64,000 bases of DNA from Balanoglossus misakiensis. Taxonomy: Eukaryota; Animalia; Hemichordata. Positions 10,501-33,524 of the stretch are shown here, piece after piece (position 1 is the first letter of the stretch; each line of letters starts with the position of its first letter). The stretch spans positions 2,899,943-2,963,942 of the forward strand of contig CM082595.2 in NCBI GenBank assembly GCA_040954595.2. The letters are read 5' to 3'. The notes beneath the pieces are model-generated. The model did not search any database. It was given only the letters and a program-made list of their open reading frames with translations, and was not told the origin of the DNA. The position numbers were made by a program, and so were the translations under genes.

Positions 10501-13500
10501 ATCCAAAAAAACCACTAACTCTCAAGTTTCAAGTCTCCTTTTTTCCTCTGTATCTACTGTTAATATTCCTAGAATCCTGGTCTCTACAATGTCTCTGCTG
10601 AAGAGGGTTACAGTTTGTATATGACTAGCAACACTGCCAACAGCGGTCCAACTCATACAGTCTGGACATCGTCAAATGTACGTCTTTTGACTTGCCTATG
10701 TAATCGATTGATTTGGTGTCGTTGTGTGTCGAGTCTTGTCAAGCCGGTAGTATGTGACTTCTAGATGTCTTTCGCAGATGTTAATCCCCTTGGCGGGGAG
10801 TGCGTCTTAATGTTGCTTTAGTTGTAATTGCATCCTAGAGATCCCATCCCGTAAATGTCATGATCTGCTAATACCCAACCCTGGTCCCTCACACTTTGCG
10901 TTCATTTTAATACGTCAGTTTTGTCGGGAGCTTCTTGTAGGGCAAAGTTGGAGTGGGGATATCTCAGAACAGTTTTATTTCTGACCTGCAGGATCTTAAA
11001 ACTCGTTCAAAATATTTAAAATCAGTTTAGTGAAGTAGTCAACTTTCTGCAGGTCAGAGGTCAGGTCAGAGGTCACAAGCTTGTGCATGAGTTGGAGACT
11101 CGTAGATTTTAACGCTGCATGATTGCCTGATTTGGATATTGCATGCTTTGTATCTTGACCCTTGCTGTATTTGCCTAGATGACGCTGCTTCTTAGAAATG
11201 CTGCTTTCATATTAAAAATGAGTGATTAATCACCCCTTTCCGCGTAATGAGTGATTTTTATTGTTTTTTGTTGATTGTGAATTGTCCTGTCAAATTCAGT
11301 GTTTTCATGCGACGACAGTTCTCTGGACCATTTGAGGGGAGGGGTGGAAGGGTTGAACATGAAGATATCTTGGTGCTGATAAATTTCCTCCCGCGTAGAA
11401 TCCTTTATCATAACCTTTTCACCCCCTTCTGTGAATTGGTCCATCCACACAGTATGAAACATCAAAACTGGGCTCGACTATGGTGGTGAGAGGGGGGTTA
11501 CATTGTGAATCTAGCATGACAGCTGTGTGCCTACTCTTGCATGTAAAAAAATTGCATGGGCTCTATAACCATAAATGTGCAATGCCTTGATCAACTTTTC
11601 TATTTGACTCAAACCAGTGTGTAAATGCAAGTTAAGAACGGTTATACATGTGTCAAGTTTGAATGGAATGTTTTAAGAACTTGCCCTATTCAGCTGTGGA
11701 ATTCTGGATATGTAAGGGAGAGTCCATGAAATAAGCCACAAGAGTATGACAGGCTTTTATAGGAACAATCCTATGATGATATCAGTTTAGTTTTGTGTCA
11801 TGGTGCTTTTTTGTTCTTGGTTGTTCTCATGTGTAATGCAGCCACACCAGAAATGAAACTTGAACAAAATAGAGGTCAAGCATGTTTTTGTGGTTCATTT
11901 GTGTGGTCTTGTAAAAATTGAGTAGTTGCTATCAGTGACAAACAAATTTTATTTCTATTTTCGTAGTATCCACAAAGTGTACGACAAACCTATCAACAGC
12001 AGGTGCCTCAACAAGCCAGTGGGCAGTACATCGCTCCAAGTACGCCACCATATTACACCCAGTCCCCACCCGGCCCTAATCCTGGTAAGTAAACTGTTAA
12101 AATCACAAACTCTTGGATACATGTCCGCTGTGTGGTAATGGTTGGTAAGTCTAGTGCTACCATCGTCATAGTGATAACTGAAAATGGCCATGATTACACT
12201 CAAACAACGGCAATCTTGATGGTCTCAATATGCAACAAATATCCATCATGATAAAGCTTGCATGTGAACTTTTGATATAGGTGCAAATTTGCTTTTCAGT
12301 TGGAAGTACAGACAAAATACTTTCAATTTTACTGATCGTACATCCTTGTGTGAGAGGAACCCTTTGGTGTGCTTTGTGAAGCCTAGTGTTTAGATGTGTA
12401 GAGTGTTTTCCTTTCATGGTTTTTGTTATTTGTTTATTGTTGGTTTTGTTTGTTTATAGTTGGCCAACAAGCTGCACAGTCAGTCTCTGGCCAGGGTAAG
12501 TTGTGGCGTGTGTGTGCTGTGACTGGTGATGTGGTCATGGCTGATGTGTCTATGTTGTGCTGATGATGTATCACTCATCCTGGCCATGTATCTTGGTATC
12601 CATACAGTTGGCTATATCGTGTAATCCCAAAAGAGTTAATCCTTTGAATATAAATTGTTCGTAGGGAGTTGCGAAGGGGTGGTAGGCCTGGCCAGAAGTG
12701 TTAGAACACATGCACTGGTTTTGTCAAGGGTGGCATCCAAGTAAATGTTACCAGTGAGTCATTTTTCCAAGGTTCCTCTTAGTGTATCATGTTACTCTTA
12801 GCAGAAGTGTTTCTGGGATTCCCAAATTATTTACCAATGTGCCCCAACCTTAGCAAAACCACTGACAAGCCACATTTTCCGTCATGAACATTGGAAGGGA
12901 TTATACTCCGTGGTTCAGCCAAGATCATTCAGTATGAGCAAATACATCAGCATTAACATATCCTCTCTGTATGTGTGTGTGTGTGTATGAACATGCTAGT
13001 TAGCTGATACAGGTGTCTCGCTCTGTCCTGTGAACTAACAATGCTGATTCAGCAAAAAAGGGGAAACTGAGGCCACAGGATAATGTTTACATGTTTGTGT
13101 TCTAACAGGGTAATAGCTATGTATATGTTAACAGATTTTCTCCTAAGCAGCTGCTAAATCTGTATAGTTTCCCTATGCACACCCCTATTGCCTGTGTAGT
13201 GGTTTGATCCCATTGATGAGGGAATAATAGGATCAGTCTATTGCACAGGAAACGAAGGGGGTGTGCAAATAAAAATGAAAGTTGCAATAATGTATGTTAA
13301 GCTCTGATAACCACAGAACTGGAACGGGCTTCAATGGTGCTTCTAAGTACACATAACTTTCTTCTCTTTCTGTAATGCTTGTCACAGAGACTTGCATCAA
13401 ATATTTCAGTCGCAGATCAGTAGGATTTGCCGTATTGGCAACCTGTGGACATTTTTTTTACTAGAACTTGAGACATGCATTGCACCAGTGGTGTGTAGCA

Positions 13501-16500
13501 GTTGTACTTATCACTCAATAACAAACTTTCTTCTGCAAATTATTAACACTCTATACCTGCTCTCTCTCCCTCCCTCTTTTTTTTCCAATCTCATTCTCTC
13601 TCTCCTCATCCAGAATTTTTGTACTCGGCCGCAACAGGCTACTACGCGCCACCACAACAACAGCAGCCCATGCCCCAGCAGGTGCAATACAGACAACAGC
13701 AACAGACGTACGCGACGCAGCCCGTTCAACAGAGGACGTACGAGAAACCACCACAGCGGGAGAAAAAGCTGATCAGAATCACAGACCCCACCAAAGGTGT
13801 CGATATTACGGACGAGATCATGAAAAGCAGTGGGGGTAGTAACGTCACTACCGGTAACACTGCTACAGTCACACCGCCATTGTCTGGTCGGTCCAGCGCC
13901 TCTGGGACTCCACCCCAGGTAAGTGAAGAAAAGCATCACTGGTCTGTCACATACACACACACAAAACAAGGAACTTGCCATAAATTTAAACTCCAATAGG
14001 ACTTCAGTATTTCCCCAGAACAAGTGTTGAGGGTCTGGTTGACTGATGCTCTCTGTAGGCTGCACAAACAAAAGTAGCAATTTGCTATTGAAAGAAAACT
14101 TGCTACTAATTCTTTCTTCTTTTTTTTGTCATTTTTGATACAACGTTAGATTGGACAAGCATCAACTCCACCCCCACCATTACAGCAATCACAGAGTAAT
14201 TCCATCGCAGCGCAGTTCGCAGCTCAGGTTGCAGCAACTCTGGGAACGGCGACAGAGTCAGAAAATAGGACTACTACTGTTAAACAGCCGGCTGCAGTTC
14301 CGGAAACTGCGCCGGCCGAAGTGGAACAGCCACAGAGTGTCTCACCTCCAGTGGAGACAACAACGGAAGAGGAGCCGGAGAAGCCAGTGGAGGAACCCAG
14401 CAGTGTGCCGGAAATCACAGTGGTGCCGGAAAAGGAACCGGAAACTGTGGAGAGCGAGGATGTGCCTGCCGGGAAAGAGGAGGCAGAGGAGGAGGTGGTG
14501 GCTGCCACGGAAACGGACAGTAGTGCGAAACCGGATTTACAGGAAACAGTGCAAAATGTCGAGGAGAGTAAAACGGAGGAGGTTGTTGACCAGGAATCTG
14601 TGCAGCAACCTGTTGTGCCGCCTGCAGAGGACGCGAAAAGCGCCGCGGAGGAAACTGTGACTGAAATTCCCAAGGAAGTGACAGAGCCTGCGGTCGTAGA
14701 GGATACGAAAGAAACTGTGGTGGAGTCTGCTGCTGAAATAACCCTACGTGTCAGTGACAATGGGCCAAAGGTGGAAGAACCGTCTGAGGAAACCCCAAAA
14801 GAAGTGAAAGAGGAGAAAAAGGAGGAGGCGGAAATCAAGCCGACAGAAAACCAACCCGAAATAACAGTAACTGACACAACAGGTAAGAGATGTTCTTCAG
14901 TGCTGCACTTATGTACTGCTGTCTCAGGTTCACTGGTCACACCAGACAACAACAACAACATGCGGTACAGAAGCTAGCAAACAAAAGCTGTCAGCAGACA
15001 GTACTGTGTGTTCAATCTGGTCTTATTGTCTCATTTTAAAGAGTGTGTGGAGAGGGTGATATTAGGGAGAGAAGTATTTCTTCAAAGTGTCAGTCTGTCT
15101 CTTTTCAGTTAAAGAAAACAAGAAGATGTCAACAAAACAAAGAATGAAGGAATTGAACAAGAAAGGAACGGAGGACACAGACCTCATGGATGCATTCAAA
15201 GACAAAGAAGAGGTAAAAATTTATTCAATTATTTTGAAGCCACAAACTTCTGCCAACATTTATTGCTTGTTTTATATGCATTAAAACCTGTCTAATCTGG
15301 TAAACTGTTTATACCAAAACCATTTCCTGTCCCTTTGATATAGAACCACATGTTAAAAGTATATAAACCAGACACCTCTGCAATCTGTACTAAGACAATG
15401 ATATTCAATGTTTTTTTTTACCTCAATTTGGATATTTTCTTTCAAAACAGTCAACGAAAGAGGAACCAAGCAATGAGGATGCCACAAAGAATGAAGAAGA
15501 AAAAGAAAATGTCAAAGAAACTGAAGAAGTGGAAGAGATTCCTAAAGAAACAAACAAAACTGAAAAGACAGAGGAAGAAAAGCGAAATGAAGAAAATGAA
15601 AAGAAATCCAAGGAAGAGGAGAGTATAGACAATGGAGAAGTTCGACGTGATCCTAAGGACAATAAAATTGAACTCAAGTATAAATACAGGGAAGGTAGGG
15701 AAACGTCATGATTTCTGAAACAGCGATTTTTCAAATAATTCAAAATGAAAAAAATGTCACAAAAGTCGACAGGAATAAATATGATATGGGTCGTCAAAAT
15801 TGTTGATGGGTTTGTTAGAAAATATTTCTGTTTTTATTTCAGACCAATGGAGTCCGATCAACACAGAAGGAAAGAGACAATACGACAGGGATTTTTTGTT
15901 ACAGTTTCAATTTGAAGCTAATTGCATTGAAAAACCTGAAGGGCTTCCAAAAATAGCTGATGTTATATTAGACACGGTAAGTTGGTGTCCACCCTATATC
16001 TTTTGACATTTTGCCAATTTTAGCGATTAGCAAAGATGAAGGTGTAAAGTTCTAAGCGGGAGGCAGAATTAGAATCAGTTCCTTCTGTAGAGGTCCAATA
16101 CTACCATAGAAAATAATCAATTTGGACCAAACCATGATGGTGAAAGGGTTAAATGTGGGTATGCCGATTAATTCGTTTTCATTCATGATGGATATGTCTC
16201 ATTTATTCAGGTCCATGCTAAACAGCCCATGCGGGGAGGGCCACCAATGATTCCCGGCGGCATGATGGGTAACAAGACCACGGACTTCATGCCTGCGTAC
16301 ATGGGAGGAGGGAACCAGAAAGGCAAACAGGGTTATGTTCAAAGTAACAGGGGAGCTCCACAGAGACGATCCCAAAGGGGGGAACCACGGAAAATCATCT
16401 CCAGCGCCTCGCACGGAACAGAGATCAAGCTCAGAACTACGGACAATGCATGGAAACCTCCGACCAAGAAAACAGAAGCGAAGAGTGACGCTCCAGATAA

Positions 16501-19500
16501 GGCTGTCACAGAGGTCAGTCTTCTCCCAAGGAATTTCTTATTAAGTATTGGCTTATTCACATAACAATGTAAGCAATTGTTATGATAATGAAATTCTTTT
16601 GTATTCCCCCGATCATGAAAAGAGTGACAGAGGTCAGTCTTCGCCCAAGGAATTTCTTAAGAAGTATTGGCTAATTCACATTATACACATGATGACTGAC
16701 AATGAGGGGAACAGTGAATTTTGATGTCCGAGGGCGCTGCTAGTCACAACTAAAACAGTCTTGTTTTCCCGAGGGCATAGCCCGAGGGAAAACAGACTGT
16801 TTTGGTGTGACTGACAGTCCCGAGGTCATCTAAAATACACTGTTGCCCGAATATGTCAGTTATCATGTGTTTTATAACACACCAAACCGATCGAACTGAT
16901 GCCCTAGGGAACAGTTCGAAACATGGTGTGTTATAAAACAATATGATCAGTTATGATAATGAAATTCTTTTGTATTCCCCCAAACGTTAAAAGAACATTG
17001 GTTTTCTGGAGGGAACACTGGAGGTGAATATGCTGTTGCTAATTTTTGATATTTCATCAATTACGTATCACACACTCCTGTTAGCTTATAAAAGCTTATT
17101 AGCTTGTTAGCTTATGGAGTTCTTTACCCAACTGTTTTTCATGTCAATGCCTTCACACTGTTTCTGCATTCTGTAGGACCTTTACAAGAAAGTGACTGGT
17201 ATTCTGAACAAGCTTACACCACAGAAATTCCAGACACTCACGCAGCAAGTTTTAGATCTTCCCATCGACACAGAAGAAAGGCTCAAGGGTGTGATTGATC
17301 TGGTCTTTGAGAAAGCCATCGGTGAACCAGGGTTTAGTGTAGCCTATGCAAACATGTGCAGATGTCTCATGTCGGTAAGTCCTCTGTCTGTATCTTTTGG
17401 TTGCATTATCTCAGCAAAATATAGACCAGAGATGTGATAAGTCAATCTTAAACATCTCTTAGCTCGATCATGTCATGTAACCGTAAGTGACTGGATCAAT
17501 ACTTTTCTTCTTGCAGATGAAGGTTCCCACAAATGATGGCAAAGGCAATGTCAACTTCCGTAAGCTGCTGCTCAATAAGTGTCAGAAAGAATTTGAGAAA
17601 GATAAAGATGAAGATAATGAGATGGAAGCAAAGAGAAAGGCACTTGAACAAGCTGAAACGGTTAGTAAAGATTTTTGAGATTTTCCCGTTGCAATTCGAA
17701 GTATTAACCCAAGCAAAACACAGCAGGGTTAAGTTGACTTGTGCTGATGGGAAAATCTTGCTGATTTACAGGAAGAAGAACGAAAAGAGAAGAAAGAAGA
17801 ACTCGAAATGTATGACACCAAGATGAGGAGGCGGTCTCTTGGTAACATCAGATTCATCGGAGAGTTGTTTAAGCTGAAGATGTTGACAGAACCAATTATG
17901 CATGATTGTGTTGTCAAACTTTTGAAAGCTCATGACGTAGAGTCTCTGGAATGTCTCTGTAGACTTCTTGCAACAATAGGAAAGGACTTGGACCACGAAA
18001 AAGCTAAGGTAATTTGGGCAGAAGTTTCCCATGTCAGTTTTCCTAAACCATAATTTTTAAAAAGTGGTTGAAATAATTTTTGTGCAACCAGCAGTGACAA
18101 GTATATTGAGCAACATTTTTGAGTATTACAGGGAACGTGTGCATTGAAATCTTCGAGTGAGTAATGTCAGTCTCATTTCTACAAACCTATTGGTTTATTT
18201 TCTCTTTGCAGCCAAGAGTTGATCAATACTTTGCCCAGATGGACAGAATTTCCAAGTCTAAGAAGTACTCTTCCAGGGTTCGGTTTATGCTGCAAGATGT
18301 GATTGAACTACGAGAGGTAGGTTGAGACAATTTTCGCCGTTGAAAAATCAGTTTTTGTCACTAATGGCTAAATTCACGGCCAGATATTTCATCGTACATG
18401 TACATCCTTCGGCTGACAAATTGTGTGATTTCCTGTGTCCCTTCAGAGTAACTGGGTCCCAAGACGAGATGAGAACAACCCCAAGACTATCGAACAGATC
18501 CATAAAGAGGCCAAACTTGAGCAGGAACAGTCACTCTTACTTGCACATCAACAACCTCAGCAAAACAAGAGAAGTCGAGGTAGGGGAGATAGGCAGGGAC
18601 AAGGGCAAGGGCAAGGACAAGCAGACGACGGTTGGAGTATGGTTTCCAGTACGAAGAGCAGGCCTTCTTTTGATCCCAACAAATTTAAAGTAACAAAGGT
18701 AAGATACTAAAAATGTGTACTGAAGTGATTATTTACCTCTGATCACATTGTGGTTTCCAAGGTGTTAATGGAATAGAACTGGACAAATTTAATTAACCTT
18801 TTCAACATCAGATCCCCCCTCTATAGAGGTCCAAGTTTACCATAGAAAACTATGACTTTGAGAGGGGTATGGTGGTGAACATATGCCCATATGTGAAAGG
18901 GTGTGTCTGCCTTCAAATGGTCGTGTGGTGGAGCTTTATCATGTGGCCACCCTCTGAAAATATCACAGGCTAGATCTCGACTAGCAAGCAGTCATCTTGG
19001 TGACTGTGGCATTAGGTGACAGTATACCTTTAACGGAAATGCATTATTTTGTACACACAGCAAACTGTGGATGAAAACATTCAACTTGGTCCAGGTGGTA
19101 GACCAGGTGGTGTTTTCGGTGGCTGGGGCCGCGGAAGTAGTGGAGGCACTGGAGGCAAATCGCAGCAAGAGCAACAAGAATCCCGACCTGCACCGGCAAA
19201 CAGATTCCAGGCTCTGGCATCCGGTGAAACGCAGCCGTATGACTCGTCAAGGAGAGGATCAAGGTATGGACAAATGTCCGGAATTAAAGGGACAAAGTCT
19301 CTCTCTCGCTGCCCTTTTTCCATTATGTTTGATACAAGACACTGTTTATGTATAAATGTACATGTGTATATGCAGTGAATGAACATTCAACCACACACAA
19401 CTTCCATCCCGCTTGTATGATATGAGAGTAAACTTGCCCATAATGAATAAATGGCAGAGACTGGACATGTATTGTCCATTTTAAATGAACGTACAGTAGT

Positions 19501-22500
19501 ATATTATGTGCAGACAGCCAAGTGTGTTAAACCATTGAAAGCCACATATGTGACAATGTGTGTAAATGTTGCCATGCAGGGAGATTGGTCGAGGGCGTGA
19601 TAATAAGGGTGGCAGACAGCTGAGTGGTCCAAGAAGATCCACATCCAGGGAAAGCGGCAGAGATGGGAGAAACCGGGAAAGAGAAGAAGCTATCGCAATT
19701 GCCAAGAATTTATCGTCCTCCCAAGCCCTGGCTGACAGGAACAGAGAAAGAGGTGAGGGTCATGTTTTGTATTATTTTTGAGGAGAGGTTTTTGTTGTGT
19801 ATTTTGGGTTTGTAGGAGAATGTTTTGGGGCAGGATCTTTACAGTTTGTCTTTTTCGAACTTCAGCCAAGACACCAGAGCCAAGAGCAGCGACCCCACAA
19901 CCGGCAGAACCCAAAGCTGTGCCCAGTGACATATCGGAAGAAGCCATGGAGAAGAAATCCAAGGCAATCTTAGAAGAATTCATGCATCTCAAAGACTCGA
20001 GGGTAAGGACAGAACTCCTTCCATTGTTTCAGACATCCAAATTTTTTATATCAAACCGTTGTGCGTGATCGTGCTGTAAATCCCAGTCAGTGAGAATTTA
20101 ACGGAGGAGCCAGCAGTAACTGTTGCCAAAGCAAACATTACAGTTCCAGGAACACTCCATCCTTATTTGGATATTTGATCTCGTTTCTTTACAGGAAGTT
20201 CACGCTTGTGTTTCTGACCTCAATGCACCACGGATGATGTACATCTTTGTGAGGATAAGCTTGGAGCAGACCTTGGAGAGAAACGAGTCGACAAGACAGT
20301 CGTGTGGTGCACTCATGTATGATCTAATCAGAGATGGCAAGCTTGAAATACAACAGTACAACAAAGGGTAAGTTACAGATATTATCCAGTGCCTGCACTT
20401 TCCAGTTTGTGTTTTAACCCTTTCATCCCCAGTTCCCACTTTAGAGGTCCAACATAACCCATAGAAAACAACGGATTTGGACCAAACAGTGATGGTAAAA
20501 AGGTTAACTCACTGAAACACGCTAAATGTCTAGTTGTTACAACTTGATTCTCGCTCTGTACATGGGTAAAATATTACAATTATACTTCTTACAGGATAAT
20601 TATTGTTATTGACCAAAAACTGAATCGTACAAGGTGTTAATATTATTGTCATGTTCATTAAATTCCAGGCTTGCTGAAATCCTTGAGTATGCTGAAGACA
20701 TGGCTATTGATATCCCCAAATTCTGGACATACGTTGGGGAATATATTGCTCCTCTGGTCCAGAGTGGTAAAATCCCGATGACCGTTCTTAAAGACGTCAC
20801 GAAGCCGTTGCTTGAAATTGGAAAAGCGGGACATCTCATTGCAGAGGTGCTACTAGTGGCTACCAAAATAATAGTAAGTCTCGTGATCTTTGTAAATCAT
20901 TGTAAGTGTGGTCTGATATTGCTGTGGTTCTGCTTTTGTGGCCGTGATGTTTGTCATGCAAAAAAAGATAAAAGGATCTTGTTCTTGTGGGAATTCCTGG
21001 AAAGTCCTTTTATGATCAGGAAAACTTCCCTCTGATCCAAGGGAAGAGAATTCATTTTTTCTCACTTGTTTGAGTTGTGTTATGGCTTTTTGTGGTGTAT
21101 CAGTGATGGGTTAGTTCAATTTTATCCTCCATTTTTTCAGGGCGAGGCTAGAATTGCTGAACTCTGGCAAAGTTCCGGAATGGACTGGAGTAGTCTCTTG
21201 CCTGCCGGAGAAAATGTAAATGAGTTCCTGGAAAGGAAGGTGAGGAATCCTACACAGTTATTATCCATGTGTGAAGCAAATGTCTAAGTATATCTGTAAC
21301 TACACTCACGGCGAGGCTCCAGATGGGTGTAGCGCCCTCGTTCAATGGCCGACTTGCATCTCTAAACAATGGCGACCGTCGATGACCTTAGCAACCTGTA
21401 CTTCTGAGGACAACAATGCATTGCGGCTATGATGTCATCGCCACCTTTATGCAAGTCGGCCATTGTAGGGAGACAACTTCCTCTTATTACCAACTCTTAC
21501 GAGAACCTTTGATTTTTCTTCCTTCCCAGGGTTTGTCATTTACAGCCCCAAGTTCAAGTGGCAGTAGAAGTAGTCAAACTACAAATGTAGGAATGTCAAT
21601 CGAGCAGATTCAGAATCACTTGGAACATTTACTACTCAGAGAGAGATCCCCAAATGACAAGATTTTTGACTGGATTGAGGTGAGTGTACAGATGTGTACA
21701 GTACTCATTGGGCATGTTTGCGTATAATACCACTGAGATCAACGTAGTAGGAATGATATCATAAGTGTAATCAGATGTAGATTCAGTTAACGAATATTTG
21801 TGGTTTTTGTTTTTAGGCCAATGTTGTTGCAGAGAGAAGAAAAGATGCTGATTTTATTCGTGCCTTGATGACAGCTGTGTGCCAAAGTGCAGTGTCAGGT
21901 AAGGATTTGGGTTTCACAAAAGAAATAATAGTATATCGGAATTTGAAATTTGATTTTCATGGCGCGCACTACCTTTGTGTAATTTTGCTGAAATCTTTTT
22001 TTCGTCTGTAGGGGAAGGAAGTGCCTGTCGCTGTGAAATCAACGAAGTCAAGAACAGAGCGACTGTCCTGCAGAAATATCTTGATAATGATGACAAACTA
22101 GAATTACAAGCTTTGTATGCATTACAGGCCTTAAATTATAAATTAGATAGTCCACCAAGTAAGTACTTAGCTGATTTATGTATTGTGTGATAATTAATAA
22201 CTTAAGTGAATTAAAAGATTTTTGCTGATACTTTCGTCAACCATATAAACTGGATTTTTTTATGGTTTTTCGTTATTGTTTAAATTCTTTTGATATGTTT
22301 GTATGTGACTCTAATTGCTTTAAGACTCTGGGCTGGAATAGACTCAAACTGATTCCTAATTTCCCTTCATTTCAGGTTTACTGCGTATATTTTTTGATAA
22401 GCTTTATGACGAAGACGTGATCTCGGAAGAAGCTTTCTATGCATGGGAGAAAAGTGACGATCCGAATGAACAACAAGGAAAAGGTGTTGCACTCAAGTCT

Positions 22501-22554
22501 GTCACTGCGTTCTTCACATGGCTACGGGAAGCTGACGACGATTCTGCAGAATAG
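1599..22554 (+). CDS. EIF4G: Eukaryotic translation initiation factor 4 gamma (eIF4G1/3 type), full length
   Basis: Hand-spliced GT-AG exons keep frame: 1599-1672, 8874-8931, 9078-9263, 9432-9620, 11967-12084, (12460-12495 cassette), 13614-13918, 14150-14882, 15109-15212, 15451-15694, 15843-15976, 16211-16513, 17177-17374, 17517-17660, 17772-18008, 18212-18316, 18447-18698, 19061-19263, 19580-19752, 19866-20002, 20195-20367, 20669-20873, 21141-21239, 21530-21679, 21817-21898, 22012-22158, 22376-22554 (TAG). Motifs: PABP-binding [22 protein letters not shown]; eIF4E-binding YDRDFLL (15881-15901); MIF4G ([26 protein letters not shown]); MA3 ([15 protein letters not shown]); W2 ([18 protein letters not shown]...FFTWLREA). 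The N-terminal exons are less certain than the core. Confidence 0.96.
4828..4921. mobile_element. About 90-bp piggyBac-like MITE (TTAA|CCC...GGG|TTAA), representative copy of an abundant family
   Basis: Terminal inverted repeats TTAACCCTTTCACC / GGTGAAAGGGTTAA. Further full or partial copies lie near 16075-16152, 18792-18901, 20414-20506, 31169-31260, 40014-40050, 42438-42528, 48781-48873, 49601-49665, 51321-51390, 55225-55314, 59343-59440 and 61977-62067. Confidence 0.85.
16684..16942. mobile_element. Palindromic MITE-like insertion in an eIF4G intron, inside a local duplication
   Basis: Nested inverted repeats (AAAACAGTC...GACTGTTTT; TTATAACACACCA...TGGTGTGTTATAA). Flanking sequence TATGATAATGAAATTCTTTTGTATTCCCC occurs at 16581 and 16952. 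A related inverted copy lies at about 62601-62678. Confidence 0.6.
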
Positions 22555-24728
22555 GACATTTAAAAAAACTTACGACAAAAAAAAATGTGAAAAAACGAGG
22601 AAAAAAAATATGAAGAGGAATATATAGTTAAGATACCAGGATGCCAAAGTATATAAATTAAATTTGGCACTCACTGGATATTTTTATGATGCAAGGATTT
22701 ATTCCTCATCGATAACCTGCATGACCTTTGACCTTTGTGAACTTTGCTGCGACATGGACTACTAGAGTAATTTTTAAAAACACTCGAGACACTAGTTTTT
22801 CGAGTGGTGAAACCAGTAATAAACAATTACACAAAGATGTGGGTGGAAAGCTTAGCAGACTCTGCTCTTAAAAATCGAAGGAATGTAAAATTCTGTAAAA
22901 AAAGTTAGATAAATTATGAGGAATTTAGTCAAACCAAAACTGATAGCTCAAACTCTTTACTCCAATCGACTTATTTTTTCACTTTTCAAAATTGTGTTGA
23001 TGCATGTTACGAATCTGTGTATGTACGTAAAGATGTACTTTTTTGTATTTTCTTTTTTTTTTCTGTTCGAGGTGACATTGGGACTTCTGGGCTGCTTGAC
23101 ACTAGGAGTTCACGAAGCAGCTCAAATAAATTTTATTCAGTGTCACCCTGTATTGAAACATGCAGTCTGATTTTTTCATTTTAAAGAGTAAGTGAAAAAA
23201 AAAAACAGACAGATTGTGTGTTGAGCTATGAGAATCACGTCTTGAGGAAGATGAAAGCTTTGAAAATAAACTAACAAGTGCGCAAATGTAAGAATATTTC
23301 AAGTTCAAACTTGTGTAACAAAAACAGAATCTTGCCTGCTTCGGGAAATTAAAATAAAGACGAAGAATTGATCAATTTACAAGATGACTTGTGCTTGTCT
23401 TGTTGACTATACATGTACTTGGATGATGATTGTAGTTGGTACATGGAGCCCCAATATATTTTAGGGCTCAGTCACTTCCAGAGAGTGTGTGTTGTGTCCA
23501 TCGTTTTCCAAACCTTAAAAAAACTGCTGTAGGGTGTTGCCTTTGGTCTGAACAGTTTTCTGAGCAACCTAATGTCTGTTTTATCCCAAAATCACAGATT
23601 ACTTTAAAATGGCTATTGACAGCGCCCTCCGGTGATGGCTGTGTCAATCGTATGAGACGTGCTTGACAACAGGTACCATGGATACGCATTTCTTGTATGC
23701 GGATGTAAGCTAAATTGTAACAACTAGTCTACGATCGAGACCACTGCCTGCCCGTTTAGCCAGACGATCGTTGGCGGATTCGTTCATTTCTGATCGGGCT
23801 GGCGTAGGTCTACGTCCACTTCGCAGGATCGAGAAGTAGGAGCTCTCACGTGGGAAAGGGTGGGGGGGGGGGGGGGGTCAGACACACGTATCGTCCGCTG
23901 CAAGGGTTATTTGCTCGGCCACAGTCTCCCGAGGAGAGCAAGATGCTAGACAATACTTTACATGTAGGCTGCGTAAAAAATACCGCTTACCCTTTCTTCT
24001 GTGATCGCCGAGAAACTTGGTGAAGCAATCTGTAGGTCTCCAAATGAAACTTCGTATCACACGATGAAATAAGACCAGTCACCACGTCGAATCCGGGGTA
24101 TCCCTTTCGATGTTTTCACTTGCGAACACAGTATGCCCTTTTATCACATTCCCGGGCAGTAAACAACGGGTGTTTGCGACTATAAACGGCCATGACTTCT
24201 TCGTTTTAGAAACTATGTTGCCGCTCACAACGAACGGTAACTGATGCATATGTCGGCGACGTGCAGACGACGGAAGTGGTAAAAAAAATTGACAAGCAAA
24301 TTCGCGCCATAGATTTTTTTCTTATTTAAAAAAGGATCAGTGAATTTTGGTAATTTTTCACGAAACTACGTTTGAGAATTATGAATGACAAACTTCAGCG
24401 TGAAAAAAAACGCTCTATTTTGGACATCGCGTTTTACGTCCAGACATTTATGCTAATGAGCAACTCCAAATATGGTTGACGTACATAGTTCTCAGTTTGC
24501 AATGAACTGAATAAGAGCAAAACTTGGAAAATTACTATGAATAACTTCATACAAATCACAGATGAAACTAAGACAAAACAATGTACATTTATTGTCGTTT
24601 TTTCTAAAATTCACACACAACAATATGATTACAGGTGTGTGAGCAATCTGGTGGTACAATTTGATACACTGTTTGTTGTGAGTAGATCTATATCATGTAG
24701 ATGTACATGGTGTGTCTATTCTAGATTT

Positions 24729-25499
24729 TCATTCTCCCTGAAATAAAAGTCGCATAACTTTCTCTACAAGCTCCGTCTTTTCAATGCAACCCTTAAAATC
24801 AACACCGTGTTTAGCAAGTATAGCTTTCATTTCCGCTATTGTCATTTTCTTAATTTCATCAAGCGTTGGAAGATCACTACTGGATGACTGTCTTGTGTCT
24901 GGGGGAATCTGAGAAAAACAAGTTCTCAGTTTCTCTGCCTCACTCCCAGTGAATACTGGTACAAAGGTACTTTTGGTCAGATTACTGCTAGAAGATACAC
25001 TACTAGTGGTCGGTACAAGACCAGTGGGTAGATGTACATTGAACCCAAAGCGAAAATTAGCGTTGGTTTTAGGTAGTAAATTACTATTAGCAGATACACT
25101 GGTACCTGTGATCGGAATACTGCTAGAGGATACATTACTTGTGGTAGGTACAGGACCAGTGGCTAAATGTACATTGAACCCAGAAAGAAGTTTACTACTG
25201 GTATAATCTGGTACTTTACTACAACCAGATACATTACTAATTGGAGCTGCATTATCTCCAGTAGGAACATTAAAAAAGACAGATGCGGTACTGCTAGTAC
25301 TAGTGCTACTAGTAGTTGCACTACCAATGGTAGGGCTAGAATATGGGGAACTACTAATAGATATATTATTGGTGACGTCACCACTTGTGTTACTATTTAT
25401 ATCTTGATTAGTTTTTCTTTTGCGCTTCTTCTTTTTATGTTTTTCTGGAGTGCTTTTTGCCTCCTGTTGCAGTGTGAATAGTTGATCCCGTTGATTGTT

Positions 25500-25561
<62 letters not shown>

Positions 25562-27157
25562 GAGCTTGCAATGTACTTGGGTGTACTGCAGACTGCATCT
25601 GAGTGCAACGAGAACTTGAGTAAGACTGCAATACAGATTAATTGACACCTGAACAATAGCAGTGTCTATAGTTTGATAATAATCCAGTATTGTTTGCTTG
25701 ATATGTATTGTATTGACAATTCCTAACTTGAAACTTGCTATTTCAAAGTACACTCATATCTCTTCAACAGATTGTAGAAATACACTTTAATATGTAGAAT
25801 GTGTTGACCAACTTGTCAAAAAAACTATAGCTGGTTGAATAATTGGTCATATAACAATATCTCACCTCGTATATTCTTGACATGTTCAACAAATGACTCA
25901 ATTTGCTTGTACTAAACTTACATCTTTCTTTTTCTTTCGTTTTTGTCCACCTTCATCTCCTGTTGCCTTTTCTCTTTTCTTACGTTTTGGTTTTTGTTGT
26001 TGCAGTTCATCATCTGTCCTTTTCTTCTTTTTGGCTGAGGTCCCAGGGACTGCACCGAGACTGTCAATAAAGTCTGGAGAAAAGACACGACCTTCTTGTT
26101 CTTTTGTTGTTGCACAACTCCCTTCGTCATCTTCAAGAATGCTGTCATCCAAACTGGCGCTCGGGCACCCGGGGAATGTTGCTGTTCGGACCTTCCCGAA
26201 CTCCCCCACTTCAGAGCTGACGGTTACATCGAAATACAAGAATCGCGTTTCTTCTGGATTCGTGTTGATTTCTTCCGATAGAAGATTTTCAATCGGGCCT
26301 TTCGCTTTGTCTGCAAACGTCAAAAATGGCACAGGATTTGAAAAGTTCATTTTCATTTCTGCCCGTAGCTTGTACTCAGATAACCGATCCTTGTGATTCA
26401 CGACACTGTCTAGCTGCCTTTTTATAATTTTCTTTTTCCCCAAAAAAGCTCGTTCAAAATCATCTAAAGCTTTCTTCTCCATGAGCCGCACGTTTTGGGA
26501 CATTGCCTTTGCATGATTCCTAATGGTGGTTCTTCCATTCTTATGATTCTTTGTGAGCTCTTGGAGCTCTTTCTTCAAACCAGCCTTCACGCCAGGAACC
26601 TTTTTGATCTTCTCCGTAATCTGTAGCAACACATTTTTGAAATCCTCCTTTGCTTCCTTCGCCACACCCTCAATGTCTGTATATTGGTGTGCTGGGTTTG
26701 GGTGTTCGCTAAAGGCACACTTCAAACAAACACATTTCTTACAACTCTTGCAGTACACGTCCAGCGTTTTGTCTGGGTGTTTTTCGCAGTACGAGGGCTG
26801 GTCTGCGATCGGATTTGTGCTTGTCACATCCTGGAATTTACCTGGAACTCGAACGTCTGGGTTCACAGTTGTGGGGAGCGAGGCCGGGATCTCTCTGGTT
26901 TCCATTAAGTCAAACAACCTGTTGACGTTGCGTAGCATTCTGTTTGTCGGCAGTTCTTTCACGCCTCCCGGAGGCAAAATGAAAGGTTTCCGGCAATTTG
27001 GACAAGTCAAGTCGCCCTTGTTGCTCTCTACCCATTCTTCAAGGCAATGCTCACAGAAGCTGTGCTGACAGTTCAGAAGCTTTGGTACCAGATATTCCTC
27101 GAAACAAATGTCGCATATCGTTGTTTCGTCTCGAAGCCAGTCAATTTCAGACGCCAT
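24729..27157 (-). CDS. TRIM-A: RING / B-box2 / coiled-coil protein with a spliced polyQ, S/T-rich and SAP-like C-terminus
   Basis: Exon 1 is 27157-25922: C3HC4 RING CDICFEEY...CQHSFCEHC...CPNCR, B-box CEKH...YCKSCKKCVCLKCAFSEH, coiled coil. It ends GAT|GTAAGT. Acceptor TATTGCAG|TCT at 25625 is phase 0 and in frame with ORF 24729..25631, which ends in MTIAEMKAILAKHGVDFKGCIEKTELVEKVMRL. Confidence 0.8.
25500..25562 (-). repeat. (CAA)n microsatellite encoding polyQ in TRIM-A exon 2
   Basis: Pure TTG run on the + strand, about 21 units. Confidence 0.95.
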
Positions 27158-27784: not shown

Positions 27785-30700
27785 ATGGCGTCTGCAGGTG
27801 AATCGGACGACGATGGCGATAAGTCGCTGAAAGAAGAACTACTAACATGTCAACTTTGCTTCGAAATATACAAGCTGCCGAAATTGTTGCCATGTCAACA
27901 CACGTTCTGCGAACATTGTCTCGAGCGATGGGTGGACACTAATCAGGGAAGACTGATTTGTCCGTGCTGTCGTCAACTTGTTACAATGTCGCCCGAAGAT
28001 GTTAGGGGACTACCAGCGAATCGAGTGATTGGAAGTTTTTTGGACTTTCTTGTTAATCGCTCGAAGGCTAAACGTGATACTGAAACAGGTTTGCGATGTG
28101 AAACGTGTCCCAAGAATGCTGACAATCGCTGTGTAGAGTGCGCGCAATATCTCTGTACCCGCTGTCGTGATGTTCATAGCAAGGGGAAACTGACTAAAAT
28201 GCACAGGGTGTTGAGCGTCGAAGAATTTGACGAAGAGAGACTGACGAATCCAACTATCGAGCAACCGTCTACATACTGCGAAAGGCACGTAGACTCACCC
28301 ATTGAAGTTTATTGCAAAACGTGCGAAGTGTGTGCCTGCGTCAAATGTGCATTTTCGGATCACCCAAACCCAGAACATCACCACATCTCTGTTGACGATG
28401 CTGCTGTCGAATTAAAAGGTGAATTCGAGAACTTCGTTCAGCGACTTGAAAACTGCCGAAAGCAAACGCAAGCCGGTCGGTCTGTTGTGACGAAAGAACT
28501 TATTGAACTGGAGAAGCACTTCAAGAAAGGAATAGAAAACATAGATAAACACGTTGAAGAAATTATCAGAAATGCGCAGACGATGCAACGAAAAGCGAAA
28601 GAGGACTTCCGACATGCTTTCGAAGCGAAAGAAAAGGTTCTGAAAACTCAAATACGGAATTTAGAAACTAGAGAAAATTCCTTGGCGAACACGAGGGAGT
28701 TTGCAGAAATGCAAATAAACTCTGCTCAGTTTTTGTCGTTAGAAAGTGAAATGAAACAGCAAATTGAAAGCATTATCTCGACAGAGGTGAACATGGAACC
28801 CGAAGAAAACAATTTCTTGGATTTTGAAGTACAAGGCAGTCCTGATGTCGATAATTTCGGAGAAGTTCGCACAAACTCGGCCGTTTATTTCAGTTTATAT
28901 GAGAGAGTGAGTATTTAGGCTAATTTATGTAAAAATAAATAGTCCTCAATATTAAGCAAGCTGTGTTCTTGAGTTCGTCTTCCAAAACGATTTGTAGAAT
29001 TCATATATTTATTTTAGATACAACTTTACCATGCAGTAAAATTCCTTTTTGAACAAGACTGCATGTTCTTTGACTTGTCTACACCAAAAAATACAAATGA
29101 AAACACTCTTTAAAGTTCGGCTTTTTGAATTTTCTGCATTTTGTTCTGGTAACTTCTTTGCTTCTGTCAAATGCAGTCACACACAGAGACGGGAAAGACG
29201 TCAGGAGTGGCTGACCAAGATAAAGCTCGATGTGAACCTGAGGTCAACAAAGTACAGTTAAAGTACAAATACAAGGAAGGTGAGCGACACTGTTCAACCT
29301 TAGTAAAAGGATAGGCCAGGGATTAAGTAATGAGAAAAAAACACGAAGTCTGTCAAAACTGAACACCACTTCTCTGTTTATAAACACACCACTGAAGCAA
29401 TCAACTCAACAGAAACATTTTCCATTCCAGGTCAATGGAGTCCGATTATTACATGTGTGAAGTTGGTTACTAGTTACTAGTTCCTGGTTCCTTATTGGGT
29501 TTCCTACGGCCTGGCTAAGCTGATGCCCCGGCACTCTAGGGACCGTTCAGTTTTTACGGCCTTGGGGGGGGGGGGGGGTGGCAAGTTTGAGTCATCGGTT
29601 TTCAAAATCAGGCGGACCCCCCCCCTTCACCCAGGACCAAAACATGATGATCCCCCCCCCCACCTTTGAACAAATTGAAATGACAAGTCAATACAATAGT
29701 TGCTAGAATTGGTAAAACAAGAAAAGTGGCGGGGGGTGGGCGGCAAAATCCAGGGGGGGGGGGTCACTTAAATTTTGAAGTCCAAAAGGGGGGGGGGTCA
29801 TCTGGGGTTTTTAAACGTTTAGGGGGGGGGCACATACTTTTGCCACCGAACTTTTGCTTTTGAGTCCACAAAATTGAGTTGCAGTTTCGCGCCTTTTATT
29901 TTACAAACTTTTCTAATGTGGGAGGGGGAGGGGACACCCCCTCCCACACCCACCCCCTTCATTCTCCACCACATTTCATTTTTTTGCTGGTTTGTCCAGT
30001 GTACCAGAGCAGAGTGCTTGCCACCCCAACCCCACCGATGATAATATTTAACAAAGTAAATACATAAAGGGGAATAATCGTTTAAACCATTTCGCATAAC
30101 TAATAGTTTCGCGATGCTTCTTGTATATACTAGAAGTTTTATAAATGATGTCATGACTAACATGACGCCAAATCTGCTAACTTTGAGTGGATAGGCAAAA
30201 AGTAAAATTGGTCCTCCCAAACATTGAGATAATTTGCTTTTGAGTTCATTAAAATGCAACTTTGAGCTACATATTTTACAAAATTTTCCACCCCGCCACT
30301 TTTCTTGTTTTACCAATTCTAGCAACTATTGTATTGACTTGTCATTTCAATTTGTTCATAGATTTCTTTATTGCAACGAAGTACTATTATATACTATAAT
30401 ACTTCAATAATACTTTAAGAAATTTATAATTGAGGTGTGAGGAGCCTCATTCCCTTTATTGCATACAGTGTACATAGGATCAGGACGGCGAATGTTTTCG
30501 GCGTGGGGGGGGGTCATCATATTTTTGGGTCTGTCAGAGGGGGGGGTCATCATTTTTTGGTCCTGGGTGAGGGGGGGGGGGGCGGCCTGATTTTGAAAAC
30601 CAATGACACAAACTTGCCCCCCCCCCCCCCCGGCCGTAAAAATTGAACGGTCCCTTAGAATGGGTGAAATGTGTTATTTTGAATACGGAACAAAATCAGG

Positions 30701-32926
30701 AACTGGGAACTACCTGCATATTCAGATTGAATCGAATAAGGAACGAGGAACTAGTAACCAACTTCACACACCTTTAATACAGAGGGAGAAAAGAAATACG
30801 ACAGAGATTTTTTGCTGCAATTTCAGTTTGATCCCCTGTGTATACAAAAACCTGAAGGGCTTCCAAAAATAGCTAATGTCATATTAGACTCGGTAAGTTT
30901 TTTGATATATTGCCAATTGTAGTGATAGTAGCCTGGCCCCAGACCAGTGTGTAGAATTTCTATATATCTAAAACACACTGGTCTGGGGCCGGGCTATAGT
31001 GATAGCAAAGATGTAGCAAAATTTAGAAATTCGCGGAAAGTTCCAAATGGGAGGTAGAATTAATACATTAGATTGTCACTGATTTTTTTAAACTGTAGTT
31101 AGTTAACAAAGCGGGAACATTGATTTGTGTTGAATTGTTTTACCTCTGGTAGGATATATGCTGTTGTCTTAACCCTTACAGCTTCAGTTCCCTTTGTAGA
31201 GGTCCAATACTACCATAGAAAAAATCAATTTGGACCAAACCATGATGGTGAAAGGGTTAAATGTGAGTTTTCATTCATGACGGATATGTCTCATTTATTC
31301 AGGTCCATGCTAAACAGCCCATGCGGGGAGGGCCACCAATGATTCCCGGCGGCATGATGGGTAACAAGACCACGGACTTCATGCCTGCGTACATGGGAGG
31401 AGGGAACCAGAAAGGCAAACAGGGTTATGTTCCAAATAACAGGGGACCTCCGCAGAGACAATCCCAAAGGGAACCACAGAAAATCATCTATAGCACCTCG
31501 CAGGGAACAGAGATCAAGCTCACGGAAAGTGTAGCAAAACCTCTGACCGAGAAAACAGAAGCGAAGAGTGCCTCTCCAGATAAGCCTGTGACAGAGGTCA
31601 GTCTTCTCCCAAGGAATTTCACCACCAGTTTGTTCTATGGAAGTCCAAATTTTTACCATAGAAAACAATAACTTTGACGGGGGCATGGTGGTGAAGATGT
31701 GTCCATAATGGTTGAAAGGGCGTGTTTAATCTTCAAATGAACATGTGTTGGTGCTTTTTTTCAATACTTAGCGTTTCTATTTTACTTCCTTCTGTAGCCA
31801 TATTACCATCAACAACAACAGCAGCATCATCGCCAACACAGACCAACTGGGATGAGTATGCAAAGACAAGTTGCACCACAATCTCAGCCAATGTACTCGA
31901 CAAGTCCCGCTACACATGCAGTTTATAATGCAGTTATGCAACCGCAACCTATACCACAAAAAACCATGAATGTAAGTAAAAATGCATAACCTCCAAAGCC
32001 CACCATTCACCTCTTACAAGTTGGTAGCTGTAATACCCACATATTTGAGGAGTCAACATGGATAAATTCTTCAATTCGATATTTTCTTTGCAAAGCATAG
32101 AAAGAGATGGGATGGGTTGATCAGCTGCAGGTAAATAAAAGAAATTGCATGGAAATTATTGTAAAATTTAACATTTTAAAATTTATTAGGCTAGCTCAAA
32201 ATAGCTACATACTAACAATAGCTTGTAGTGTCAATCTGCACAACGCAGCCATGTCAAGTCTGTCAATAGATGGTGTTGTCTGGTGGCTAAAACATCAAGG
32301 GTTGGCTGCAAGCAAAACTTGTTTCATGGTTGAAGGCAGTAGTTGTGGTTTAACACGAGTAACATTTACTATCTTTGACAAATTTTGTTTCTATTTTCAT
32401 AGTATCCTCAAAGTGTGCGACAAACCTATCAACAGCAGGTGCCTCAACAAGCCAGTGGGAAGTACATCGCTCCAAGTACGCCACCATATTACACCCAGTC
32501 CCCATCCGGCCATGGTAAGTAAACTCTTGGATACATGTCCACTGTGTGGTAATGGTTGGTAAGTCTAGTGCTACCATCATCATCATGATAAACACAATTA
32601 GAAGTGATTGTACTGCATGGTTCAGCCATGATTATTCTGAGTATGAGCATTTTCATTGGCATTAACATATCCTCTCTCCTCATCCAGAATGTTTGTACCC
32701 GGCCCCAACAGGCTACTACGCGCCACCACATCAACTAACATACGCGACGCAGCCCGTTCAACAGAGGACGTACGGGCAACCACCACAGCGGGAGAAAAAG
32801 CTGATCAGAGTCACAGACCCCACCAAAGGCGTCGATATTACGAACGAGATCATGAAAAGCAGTGGGGGTAGTAATGTCACTACCAGTAACACTGCTTATG
32901 TCACACCACCGCTTATCTTACTCTAA
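27785..32926 (+). CDS. TRIM-B: chimeric RING / B-box1 / B-box2 / coiled-coil protein fused to duplicated eIF4G exons (eIF4E- and PABP-binding motifs)
   Basis: Exon 1 is 27785-28906 (MASAGESD..., RING CQLCFEIY...CPCCR, two B-boxes, coiled coil; donor AGA|GTGAGT). It is followed by 29177-29279, 30783-30892 (cryptic acceptor; the native acceptor at 29431 runs into a transposon), 31303-31596, 31798-31971, 32403-32514 and 32688-32926 (TAA). All phases match: 2154 nt, 717 aa. The TRIM exon is certain; the full splice model is a prediction. Confidence 0.72.
29454..30770. mobile_element. Non-autonomous DNA transposon inserted inside the duplicated eIF4E-motif exon
   Basis: TIRs TGTGTGAAGTTGGTTACTAGTT (from 29454) and AACTAGTAACCAACTTCACACA (to 30770), with extended subterminal similarity (TTCCTTATT / AATAAGGAA). 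It splits QWSPI..T from TEGEKKYDRDFLL. Target duplication is imperfect (ATTATTACA / TTTAATACA). Confidence 0.88.
29539..30654. mobile_element. Nested Harbinger-like non-autonomous element with long G/C-run-rich inverted repeats
   Basis: CTA|GGGACCGTTCAGTTTTTACGGCC ... GGCCGTAAAAATTGAACGGTCCC|TTA. It also contains an internal inverted repeat of about 68 bp (29669-29736 vs 30291-30358). The superfamily call rests only on GGG termini and 3-bp flanks. Confidence 0.75.
30929..30996. mobile_element. 68-bp palindromic MITE with a perfect 9-bp TSD (TAG...CTA termini, AcademH-like)
   Basis: TAGTGATAG|TAGCCTGGCCCCAGACCAGTGTGT...ACACACTGGTCTGGGGCCGGGCTA|TAGTGATAG. It is absent from the matching eIF4G intron (about 16010-16040). 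A related end lies at about 63524-63568. Confidence 0.8.
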
Positions 32927-33524
32927 GTTCTAGTTCTGAGAGTGAAGAAGATTGGTAACCCATCTTTCACATTCAATATGTTCAGAGTTTCACAGTGTTG
33001 TAGGGAGTCGATGAAAATTTAATTGAAGTTGGCAAATTGAGTTATAATCAGTGCTGAAAAATGCCTTGCTGCTATCATACATGTACATGTGGAATATTTG
33101 TACCTATATTGACATCCAATTTGGTAAAGTCTTCCGGATACCAACAAATGTTCATGAAATGTGCAAATTACCATTAATTAGCAAGAGACTTCAAAACATC
33201 TCTTCTTATTGATGTACAGTAATGTCCTCAAGGTTATCGTGTCAAAAACTTATATTTATTCCAGAGACAAAATACACTCGGCCAAGATACATATGTTTTC
33301 ATGAATTTTTTTATTGGGATTTCTTACTGGTGATGGTTAATTTTCAACTGAAATTTTTTTATCTATCAAAGAATTGTCACATTACTCCACACTTGACTTG
33401 AAAATAGACGGCAACGAGAGACGAACAGACAACTCAAGGAGTCTCTCTGTAATCGACAGAGATCAGAAACGTTCTCTCTCAGCCTCAAAGAAGACATTTT
33501 CACAGGCGCTACTTTTGCAGTCTT

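Follow-up and report, generated by a model that had tools for sequence, protein, structure and literature searches.

Why does a second copy of the eIF4E-binding motif of eIF4G lie downstream of the eIF4G gene in the acorn worm Balanoglossus misakiensis, and has selection kept it? The window (the whole stretch of 64,000 nucleotides that was analyzed) contains both the copied motif and the parent gene, which is 79% identical to Ptychodera eIF4G and has further 5' exons upstream of position 9078.

9078 to 22556, plus strand: parent eIF4G gene, 24 exons modeled from 9078, 1600 amino acids open.
30797 to 30829, plus strand: the 11 motif codons of the copy, with the canonical YXXXXL-phi at 30797-30817, R at position 3 and Q at position 10.

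The 33 nucleotides at 15881-15913 in the parent and at 30797-30829 in the copy encode the same 11 residues. Codons 3, 7, 8 and 10 differ, by five bases in all and always synonymously, and the initial annotation, which had described four silently differing codons at these positions, was exact in both coordinates and codons. The amino acid replacements that it reported on either side, KRQ>EKK and EAN>DPL, are indeed present next to the motif. An alternative alignment of KRQ>EKK, with a 1-nt insertion and a compensating deletion, would alter the substitution counts there.

Comparison of the window with itself revealed eIF4G-derived blocks in scrambled order at 30776-32910, and upstream of 30776 we found two further eIF4G pieces and then a TRIM reading frame with a GTGAGT donor. 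From these parts we predict a gene in which a TRIM ubiquitin-ligase module is followed by six exons from the adjacent eIF4G, in scrambled order:

27785 to 28906, plus strand: exon T, with ATG, RING (C3HC4), B-box1, B-box2 and coiled coil, 374 amino acids, and a phase-0 GTGAGT donor.
29177 to 29279, plus strand: exon A, a shrunken copy of eIF4G exon 15451-15694 (103 versus 244 nt, net -141).
30783 to 30892, plus strand: exon B, the eIF4E-binding exon, with a predicted new phase-1 acceptor AG at 30781-30782.
31303 to 31596, plus strand: exon C, a copy of eIF4G exon 16211-16513 (linker before MIF4G), belonging to the young stratum described below.
31798 to 31971, plus strand: exon D, a copy of the N-terminal eIF4G exon 9432-9620, out of parental order.
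32403 to 32514, plus strand: exon E, a copy of eIF4G exon 11967-12084.
32688 to 32926, plus strand: exon F, a copy of eIF4G exon 13614-13918, with a new stop codon at its end.

Joined in the order T-A-B-C-D-E-F, the seven exons give an open frame of 717 amino acids with the motif in exon 3. All six introns of the model are GT-AG, their phases match those of the parent exons, and neither a stop nor a frameshift interrupts the 717 codons. Since every exon retains its intron flanks, an origin as a retrocopy was rejected. In exon T, the Pfam domains zf-C3HC4 (22-62) and zf-B_box scored above the curated cut-offs, and the Cys/His zinc ligands are intact and invariant among 11 sequences. The predicted structure of the TRIM module contains a continuous helix at 203-311 (pLDDT about 80-89), in a model whose overall mean pLDDT is 71.8 and pTM 0.34. 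Exon T does not contain the filamin domain present in its relatives, and the sequence suggests that this domain was removed by a clean in-frame excision. The end of exon T (28880-28906), with a VYF stretch and the phase-0 donor, resembles the exon end of the relatives.

Exon A keeps the parental phases 0/1. Exon B contains a canonical motif, a linker and a non-canonical motif and matches the eIF4G chain of PDB 5T46 (E 4.9e-9); its canonical motif has the form YX(R/K)XXL-phi-XX(R/K/Q), following the definition given, together with the non-canonical contact residues of human eIF4G, in PMC8558276. The first 130 nt of exon C are identical to the parent. Exon F carries a predicted PABP-binding site at about 32783-32860; short eIF4G peptides in two PDB entries match it, 1LJ2 (E 0.0036) and 4F02 (E 1.4), which we take to be the rotavirus NSP3 and PABP complexes. 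The MIF4G, MA3 and W2 exons have no copy in 27785-32926, their tblastn matches falling only in the parent gene. An AATAAA is located at 28934, after the read-through stop of exon T, and a TRIM-only mRNA with this polyadenylation signal is possible; downstream of the chimera's final stop, neither AATAAA nor ATTAAA occurs in 32927-33520.

A second TRIM gene is present in the window:

24729 to 27157, minus strand: TRIM-b, a head-to-head paralogous TRIM of the same clade, without an eIF4G piece.

TRIM-b can be spliced (27157-25922, 25625-24729) into a 710-amino-acid frame that ends in poly-Gln and two repeats of ~45 residues (24960-25233), and with an RNF34-like/SAP domain in its tail (Pfam E 4e-9) it is a second TRIM with a captured-looking C terminus. 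The 3' end of a minus-strand phenylalanyl-tRNA synthetase beta gene lies about 600 bp past the chimera's stop, and the further neighbors in 33500-64000 include SPC12 and XRN1 (Pfam). Glycosyltransferase-like and class C GPCR-like genes were read by eye from the ORFs, with no Pfam match on the fragments tested. An interspersed repeat family of ~90 nt has more than 10 copies in the window (4828-4921, 16076-16152, 18793-18937, 20410-20512, 31168-31261, 31619-31757 and others); one copy is common to the B-C introns of the parent and the copy, and another lies at the C-D rearrangement junction.

The motif exon itself is split by an insertion:

29431 to 29453, plus strand: B0, the 5' end of the eIF4E-binding exon (QWSPI), cut off from the rest but still with its original acceptor.
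29454 to 30770, no strand assigned: a 1.3-kb insertion whose terminal inverted repeats match perfectly for 22 bp and whose target-site duplication is degenerate.

The eIF4G-derived sequence falls into two age strata. The old stratum consists of exon A, the stranded B0 and the 5' part of exon B and has a dS of 0.5-1.0; the introns flanking exon A align to the parent no better than shuffled sequences (417/500 and 348/500 shuffles scored as high). The young stratum runs from KPEG onward and is about 7% diverged in exons and in most intron blocks (one block 15%), and exon B from KPEG has 3 differences in 45 nt, with a dN/dS of 0.6-0.7 (P about 0.6). Within the young stratum there are identical runs of 130 and 155 bases, which are improbable at this level of divergence (P about 4e-5 and 3e-5, respectively) and suggest gene conversion from the parent eIF4G. 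The presence of two divergence strata and the scrambled order led us to reject an uncollapsed haplotype as the source of the copy.

Over the 36-codon motif exon, the pairwise comparison of copy and parent, which pools the two branches, gave an Sd of 11.3, an Nd of 10.7 and a dN/dS of 0.16-0.26 (binomial P 0.0005-0.004). We polarized the changes at the protein level, using the eIF4G proteins of Ptychodera flava and Glandiceps talaboti as outgroups. There were nine residue differences over 39 codons, and at eight of them the parent agreed with both outgroups, hence these changes occurred on the copy branch. None of the eight lies inside the motif. With the protein changes placed in this way, the question whether all the silent changes arose on the parent branch becomes moot. 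The hypergeometric test, with 7 changes in 21 old-stratum codons as input, returned a P of 0.030 for the a priori 7-residue motif, 0.003 for the extended 10-residue motif and 0.001 for the 11 codons, the last being a post hoc choice. Because the copy branch is long, yet its changes avoid the motif, these results bear out purifying selection on the copied motif, as the initial annotation had proposed. Its further suggestion that the motif was translated over a long period is supported by the length of the copy branch and by flanking introns that have diverged past alignment around an unchanged motif. A third proposal, concerning the 13-residue non-canonical stretch downstream, held only in part. 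The stretch is kept, and the copy residues L, I, V and I align with L633, I636, V639 and V640 of human eIF4G. However, this tract is a young duplicate of the parent and only about 7% diverged, so that retention of KPEG..VILD is no evidence of selection; judged by its divergence, the non-canonical element was copied from the parent recently and is not independently conserved. Parallel changes shared with the Ptychodera fusion XP_070561578.1 at three linker or non-canonical sites were too few to count.

Selection on the motif in the past is also what would be seen if the transposon had recently disabled a once-functional fusion, or reduced it to TRIM and exon A, leaving the motif as a fossil. 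The ancestral acceptor at 29430 is intact, and B0 read from it without a new donor runs into a TAG stop near 29478, inside the insertion. The chimera model requires 29430 to be skipped in favor of the new acceptor, whose pyrimidine tract is moderate (60%) and whose AG pre-existed as coding sequence. Furthermore, QWSPI and NTE, which are untranslated in the model, show only silent changes, indicating that they were selected until the insertion occurred. The outer inverted repeats show no mismatch in 22 bp, and at 0.5-1% neutral divergence an intact frame would survive with a probability of 0.07-0.38. Against such a recent loss, the degenerate target-site copies, together with a second inverted-repeat element nested in the insertion (about 29538-30655) whose inner arms differ, suggest that the insertion has some age. 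At 2-3.5% divergence, the probability that the whole frame survives neutrally falls to 0.024-0.0001 (both ranges rest on assumed indel rates), and the 717 codons are free of stops and frameshifts. We consider a recently disabled or truncated fusion unlikely, and likewise doubt that this copy is disabled today. Removal of the insertion as a new intron was not favored, since the best-scoring donor gives a stop once it is joined to the acceptor; in-frame donors in the insertion are weak, with 3-5 of 9 consensus matches versus 7-8 for the donors of the model.

Outside the motif, the exons look constrained in a different way. All six indels in exons C-F are multiples of three, five of them polarized to the copy [(1/3)^5 = 0.004], versus two of nine indels in alignable introns. 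Relative to the parent span 9396-13878, the copy retains 494 of 572 exon bases and every splice site but about 361 of 3911 intron bases (~9%). Pooled dN/dS for exons C-F was 0.86-1.05, indistinguishable from neutral, and in combination with the frame-keeping indels this suggests that these low-complexity exons are constrained in frame and not in sequence. All 22 substitutions in exon C fall within its last 164 nt (31433-31596) and are mostly non-synonymous (Nd 18, Sd 4); positive selection on this exon (dN/dS 1.3-1.6) was not significant. A Trp-containing stretch that is conserved in all three eIF4Gs has been lost from exon C. The probable alternative eIF4G exons 10573-10677, which matches Ptychodera eIF4G 172-203, and 12461-12496 are absent from the copy, while the flanking constitutive exons are kept.

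These data bear on the simplest reading of the locus, namely that a neutral partial duplication, or else an assembly artifact, has by chance placed the eIF4G pieces behind a single-exon TRIM gene. A dN/dS near 1 in exons C-F is compatible with it, as is the AATAAA just past the unspliced TRIM stop. It is contradicted by the selection on the motif, the frame-keeping indels, intron deletions that spare the exons and the matching splice phases, as well as by fusions of the same clade in three other species, one of them joined at the same exon. We regard neutral duplication as largely refuted and an origin of this kind as very improbable.

The fusions in other species came from database searches. 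A search with exon T for longer proteins yielded 5 of 3033 candidates, all of them Ptychodera or Glandiceps RefSeq models fused to eIF4G segments; one more Ptychodera gene, the fifth, and a gene of Saccoglossus kowalevskii came from an exhaustive search. In total, eIF4G segments (E <= 1e-11) were present in 8 of the 152 TRIM proteins examined (150 best representatives plus two), corresponding to seven genes, five from Ptychodera and one each from Glandiceps and Saccoglossus:

Ptychodera flava, RefSeq models: XP_070561578.1/579.1, XP_070561622.1, XP_070560292.1, XP_070561580.1 and XP_070561582.1.
Glandiceps talaboti, RefSeq model: XP_077990018.1.
Saccoglossus kowalevskii, RefSeq model: XP_077864397.1.

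These relatives are automated models that are named uncharacterized, TRIM2-like or eIF4G3-like. One BLAST row, P0048 (E 0.003, 60 amino acids in the coiled-coil region), was discarded as noise. The tree was built from 38 RBCC rows with a midpoint root only, leaving out P0006 (an isoform), P0018 and P0041-P0155 except P0116. The relatives fell into one clade with the chimera's TRIM (100/98); this clade holds all eight fusion rows, the window's second TRIM and two unfused Ptychodera neighbors, which is consistent with, although not proof of, a single fusion origin with later loss. The Saccoglossus row, in which only 34% of columns are filled, branches deepest at a fork that is not firmly supported (91/79), and the five fusions of Ptychodera group together as specific to that species (100/99).

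The Ptychodera fusions tile their own eIF4G at 67-93% identity, covering residues 115-376, 621-1085, 1077-1287, 1156-1671 and 1487-1601, and all four young ones join at phase-0 eIF4G exon starts. XP_070561578.1 joins at the same exon A as the window gene, and the C terminus of XP_070561622.1 carries the same scrambled N-terminal exons and PABP site. In contrast, the window gene has the motif exons A-C and the N-terminal exons D-F without MIF4G, whereas the relatives carry other sets of eIF4G exons; the filamin region, absent here, is kept in six Ptychodera and Glandiceps genes. Five fusion genes have the motif segment, and in all five R3, L6, L7 and Q10 are kept; the Tyr is kept in four, with Phe replacing this key residue in the Glandiceps fusion. 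Three of the five Ptychodera fusions lack the eIF4E motif. In the three genes with an older capture, MIF4G has decayed to 22-34% identity while the adjacent eIF4E motif persists. The divergence of the three acorn-worm families represented dates back several hundred million years.

When the old, degenerate part of the Glandiceps fusion served as query in a word search, a weak test given the method, the only hit among 3548 candidates was the query itself. An ESM Atlas match for P0116 and P0006 is a 71-member, mostly chordate cluster (808 amino acids, score 0.82) with MIF4G in 100% and the TRIM coiled coil PF25600 in 97% of its members; as a lead only, this cluster is possibly an independent TRIM-eIF4G fusion. 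We found no description of TRIM-eIF4G fusions in the literature as judged by titles and the starts of abstracts; the supplements of the hemichordate genome papers could mention these genes.

Several known systems combine some of these features. In TRIMCyp, TRIM5 is joined to cyclophilin A in owl monkey and macaques, and zebrafish ftr52 carries a RanBD-CypA, with splicing creating the chimera (PMC2279257, PMC3137616). As in TRIMCyp, the RBCC module here would have its C-terminal domain replaced by captured exons of a virus-engaged host gene; the GT-AG model and the annotated homologous fusions predict these exons to be in frame with it. Unlike in TRIMCyp, the donor is eIF4G and not cyclophilin A, it was captured as genomic exons with intron flanks and not as a retrocopy, and the host TRIM belongs to the filamin type (TRIM2/3/45-like), not to the B30.2 type. 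The eIF4G bait is, moreover, recopied repeatedly and tiles the donor protein, and an antiviral role would follow here by analogy only. A second parallel is the plant integrated-decoy NLRs, in which an immune module carries a duplicate of a host protein that pathogens target; the chimera differs in being an animal E3 ligase scaffold, and its decoy role is putative.

The chimera also resembles the 4E-BPs (4E-BP1-3, Thor, CUP, 4E-T and Mextli), which are described as having a canonical motif, a linker and a non-canonical motif but no eIF4G scaffolding domains (PMC8558276). It differs from them in deriving directly from eIF4G exons and in adding a RING, B-boxes, a coiled coil and a PABP site, and it has Asp-Pro at the position of the Ser-Pro phosphosite of 4E-BP1. 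PML/TRIM19 and the arenavirus Z protein are likewise TRIM/RING proteins reported to act on eIF4E and repress translation (PMC8558276), but they bind by the RING itself, whereas the chimera would use the captured eIF4G motif.

From the gene model and its motif we consider it fairly probable that this is a seven-exon TRIM-eIF4G gene whose protein is an eIF4G mimic that docks on eIF4E. The coiled coil would dimerize the protein and so display two eIF4G-like tails; in each, the canonical and non-canonical motifs could bind eIF4E, and exon F could bind PABP. Because MIF4G, MA3 and W2 are absent, the cap complex formed by the chimera would be silent, recruiting neither eIF4A nor eIF3 nor the ribosome, and the RING would ubiquitinate whatever engages the tail.

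What such a protein is for can be read in two ways that differ in purpose and not in gene model. On the first, the tail would lure viral proteins or RNAs that seize or cleave eIF4G, as an antiviral bait whose likeness to the target is maintained by recopying from the genuine gene. eIF4G is reported to be cut or bound by many viruses (PMC10078398, PMC5524322). On the second, the protein is made as a developmentally or stress-regulated repressor, a 4E-BP with its own E3 ligase and no viral link, which would block eIF4F assembly or degrade eIF4E or PABP. Across four species no other part persists as well as the eIF4E motif, the window protein keeps exactly the eIF4E and PABP sites while dropping the ribosome-recruiting domains, and the new Pro that follows the motif in the copy corresponds in alignment to the one behind the canonical helix in 4E-BP1 and is found again in the fusions of Glandiceps and Saccoglossus, all of which would suit a repressor. 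The Ptychodera expansion, however, tiles eIF4G and includes pieces without an eIF4E site, and tiling with repeated recopying from the parent suits baits better than a stable regulator. We therefore hold a purely regulatory role to be somewhat unlikely. Since tiling and recopying of the donor eIF4G are what a decoy needs, antiviral bait is the favored purpose, on present evidence the likeliest single one, even if we would put it at somewhat less than an even chance. The two roles can coexist.

We tentatively propose that acorn worms have an ancient integrated-decoy TRIM family that guards the translation-initiation hub with pieces of eIF4G, is resupplied by exon capture and gene conversion, and is anchored on eIF4E by a motif kept since the three families diverged; the chordate TRIM-MIF4G cluster may be an independent origin. 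The specificity of TRIM proteins comes from the C-terminal domain, and TRIMCyp is the best-known example in which a captured host protein baits a virus. A C terminus derived from eIF4G would put an E3 ligase directly on the cap-binding complex, a frequent viral target. Some annotated invertebrate "eIF4G expansions" may be TRIM-eIF4G fusions. In a hadal sea cucumber, 17 "eIF4G1" copies, counted via MIF4G and W2, have been read as a deep-sea adaptation (PMC9700323); some of these copies could be partial or fused to a TRIM. The family described here spans three acorn-worm families, has expanded in one of them to tile most of eIF4G and has been recopied from its donor, and it would provide either an animal case in which the integrated-decoy strategy can be tested or a new way of arriving at a 4E-BP.
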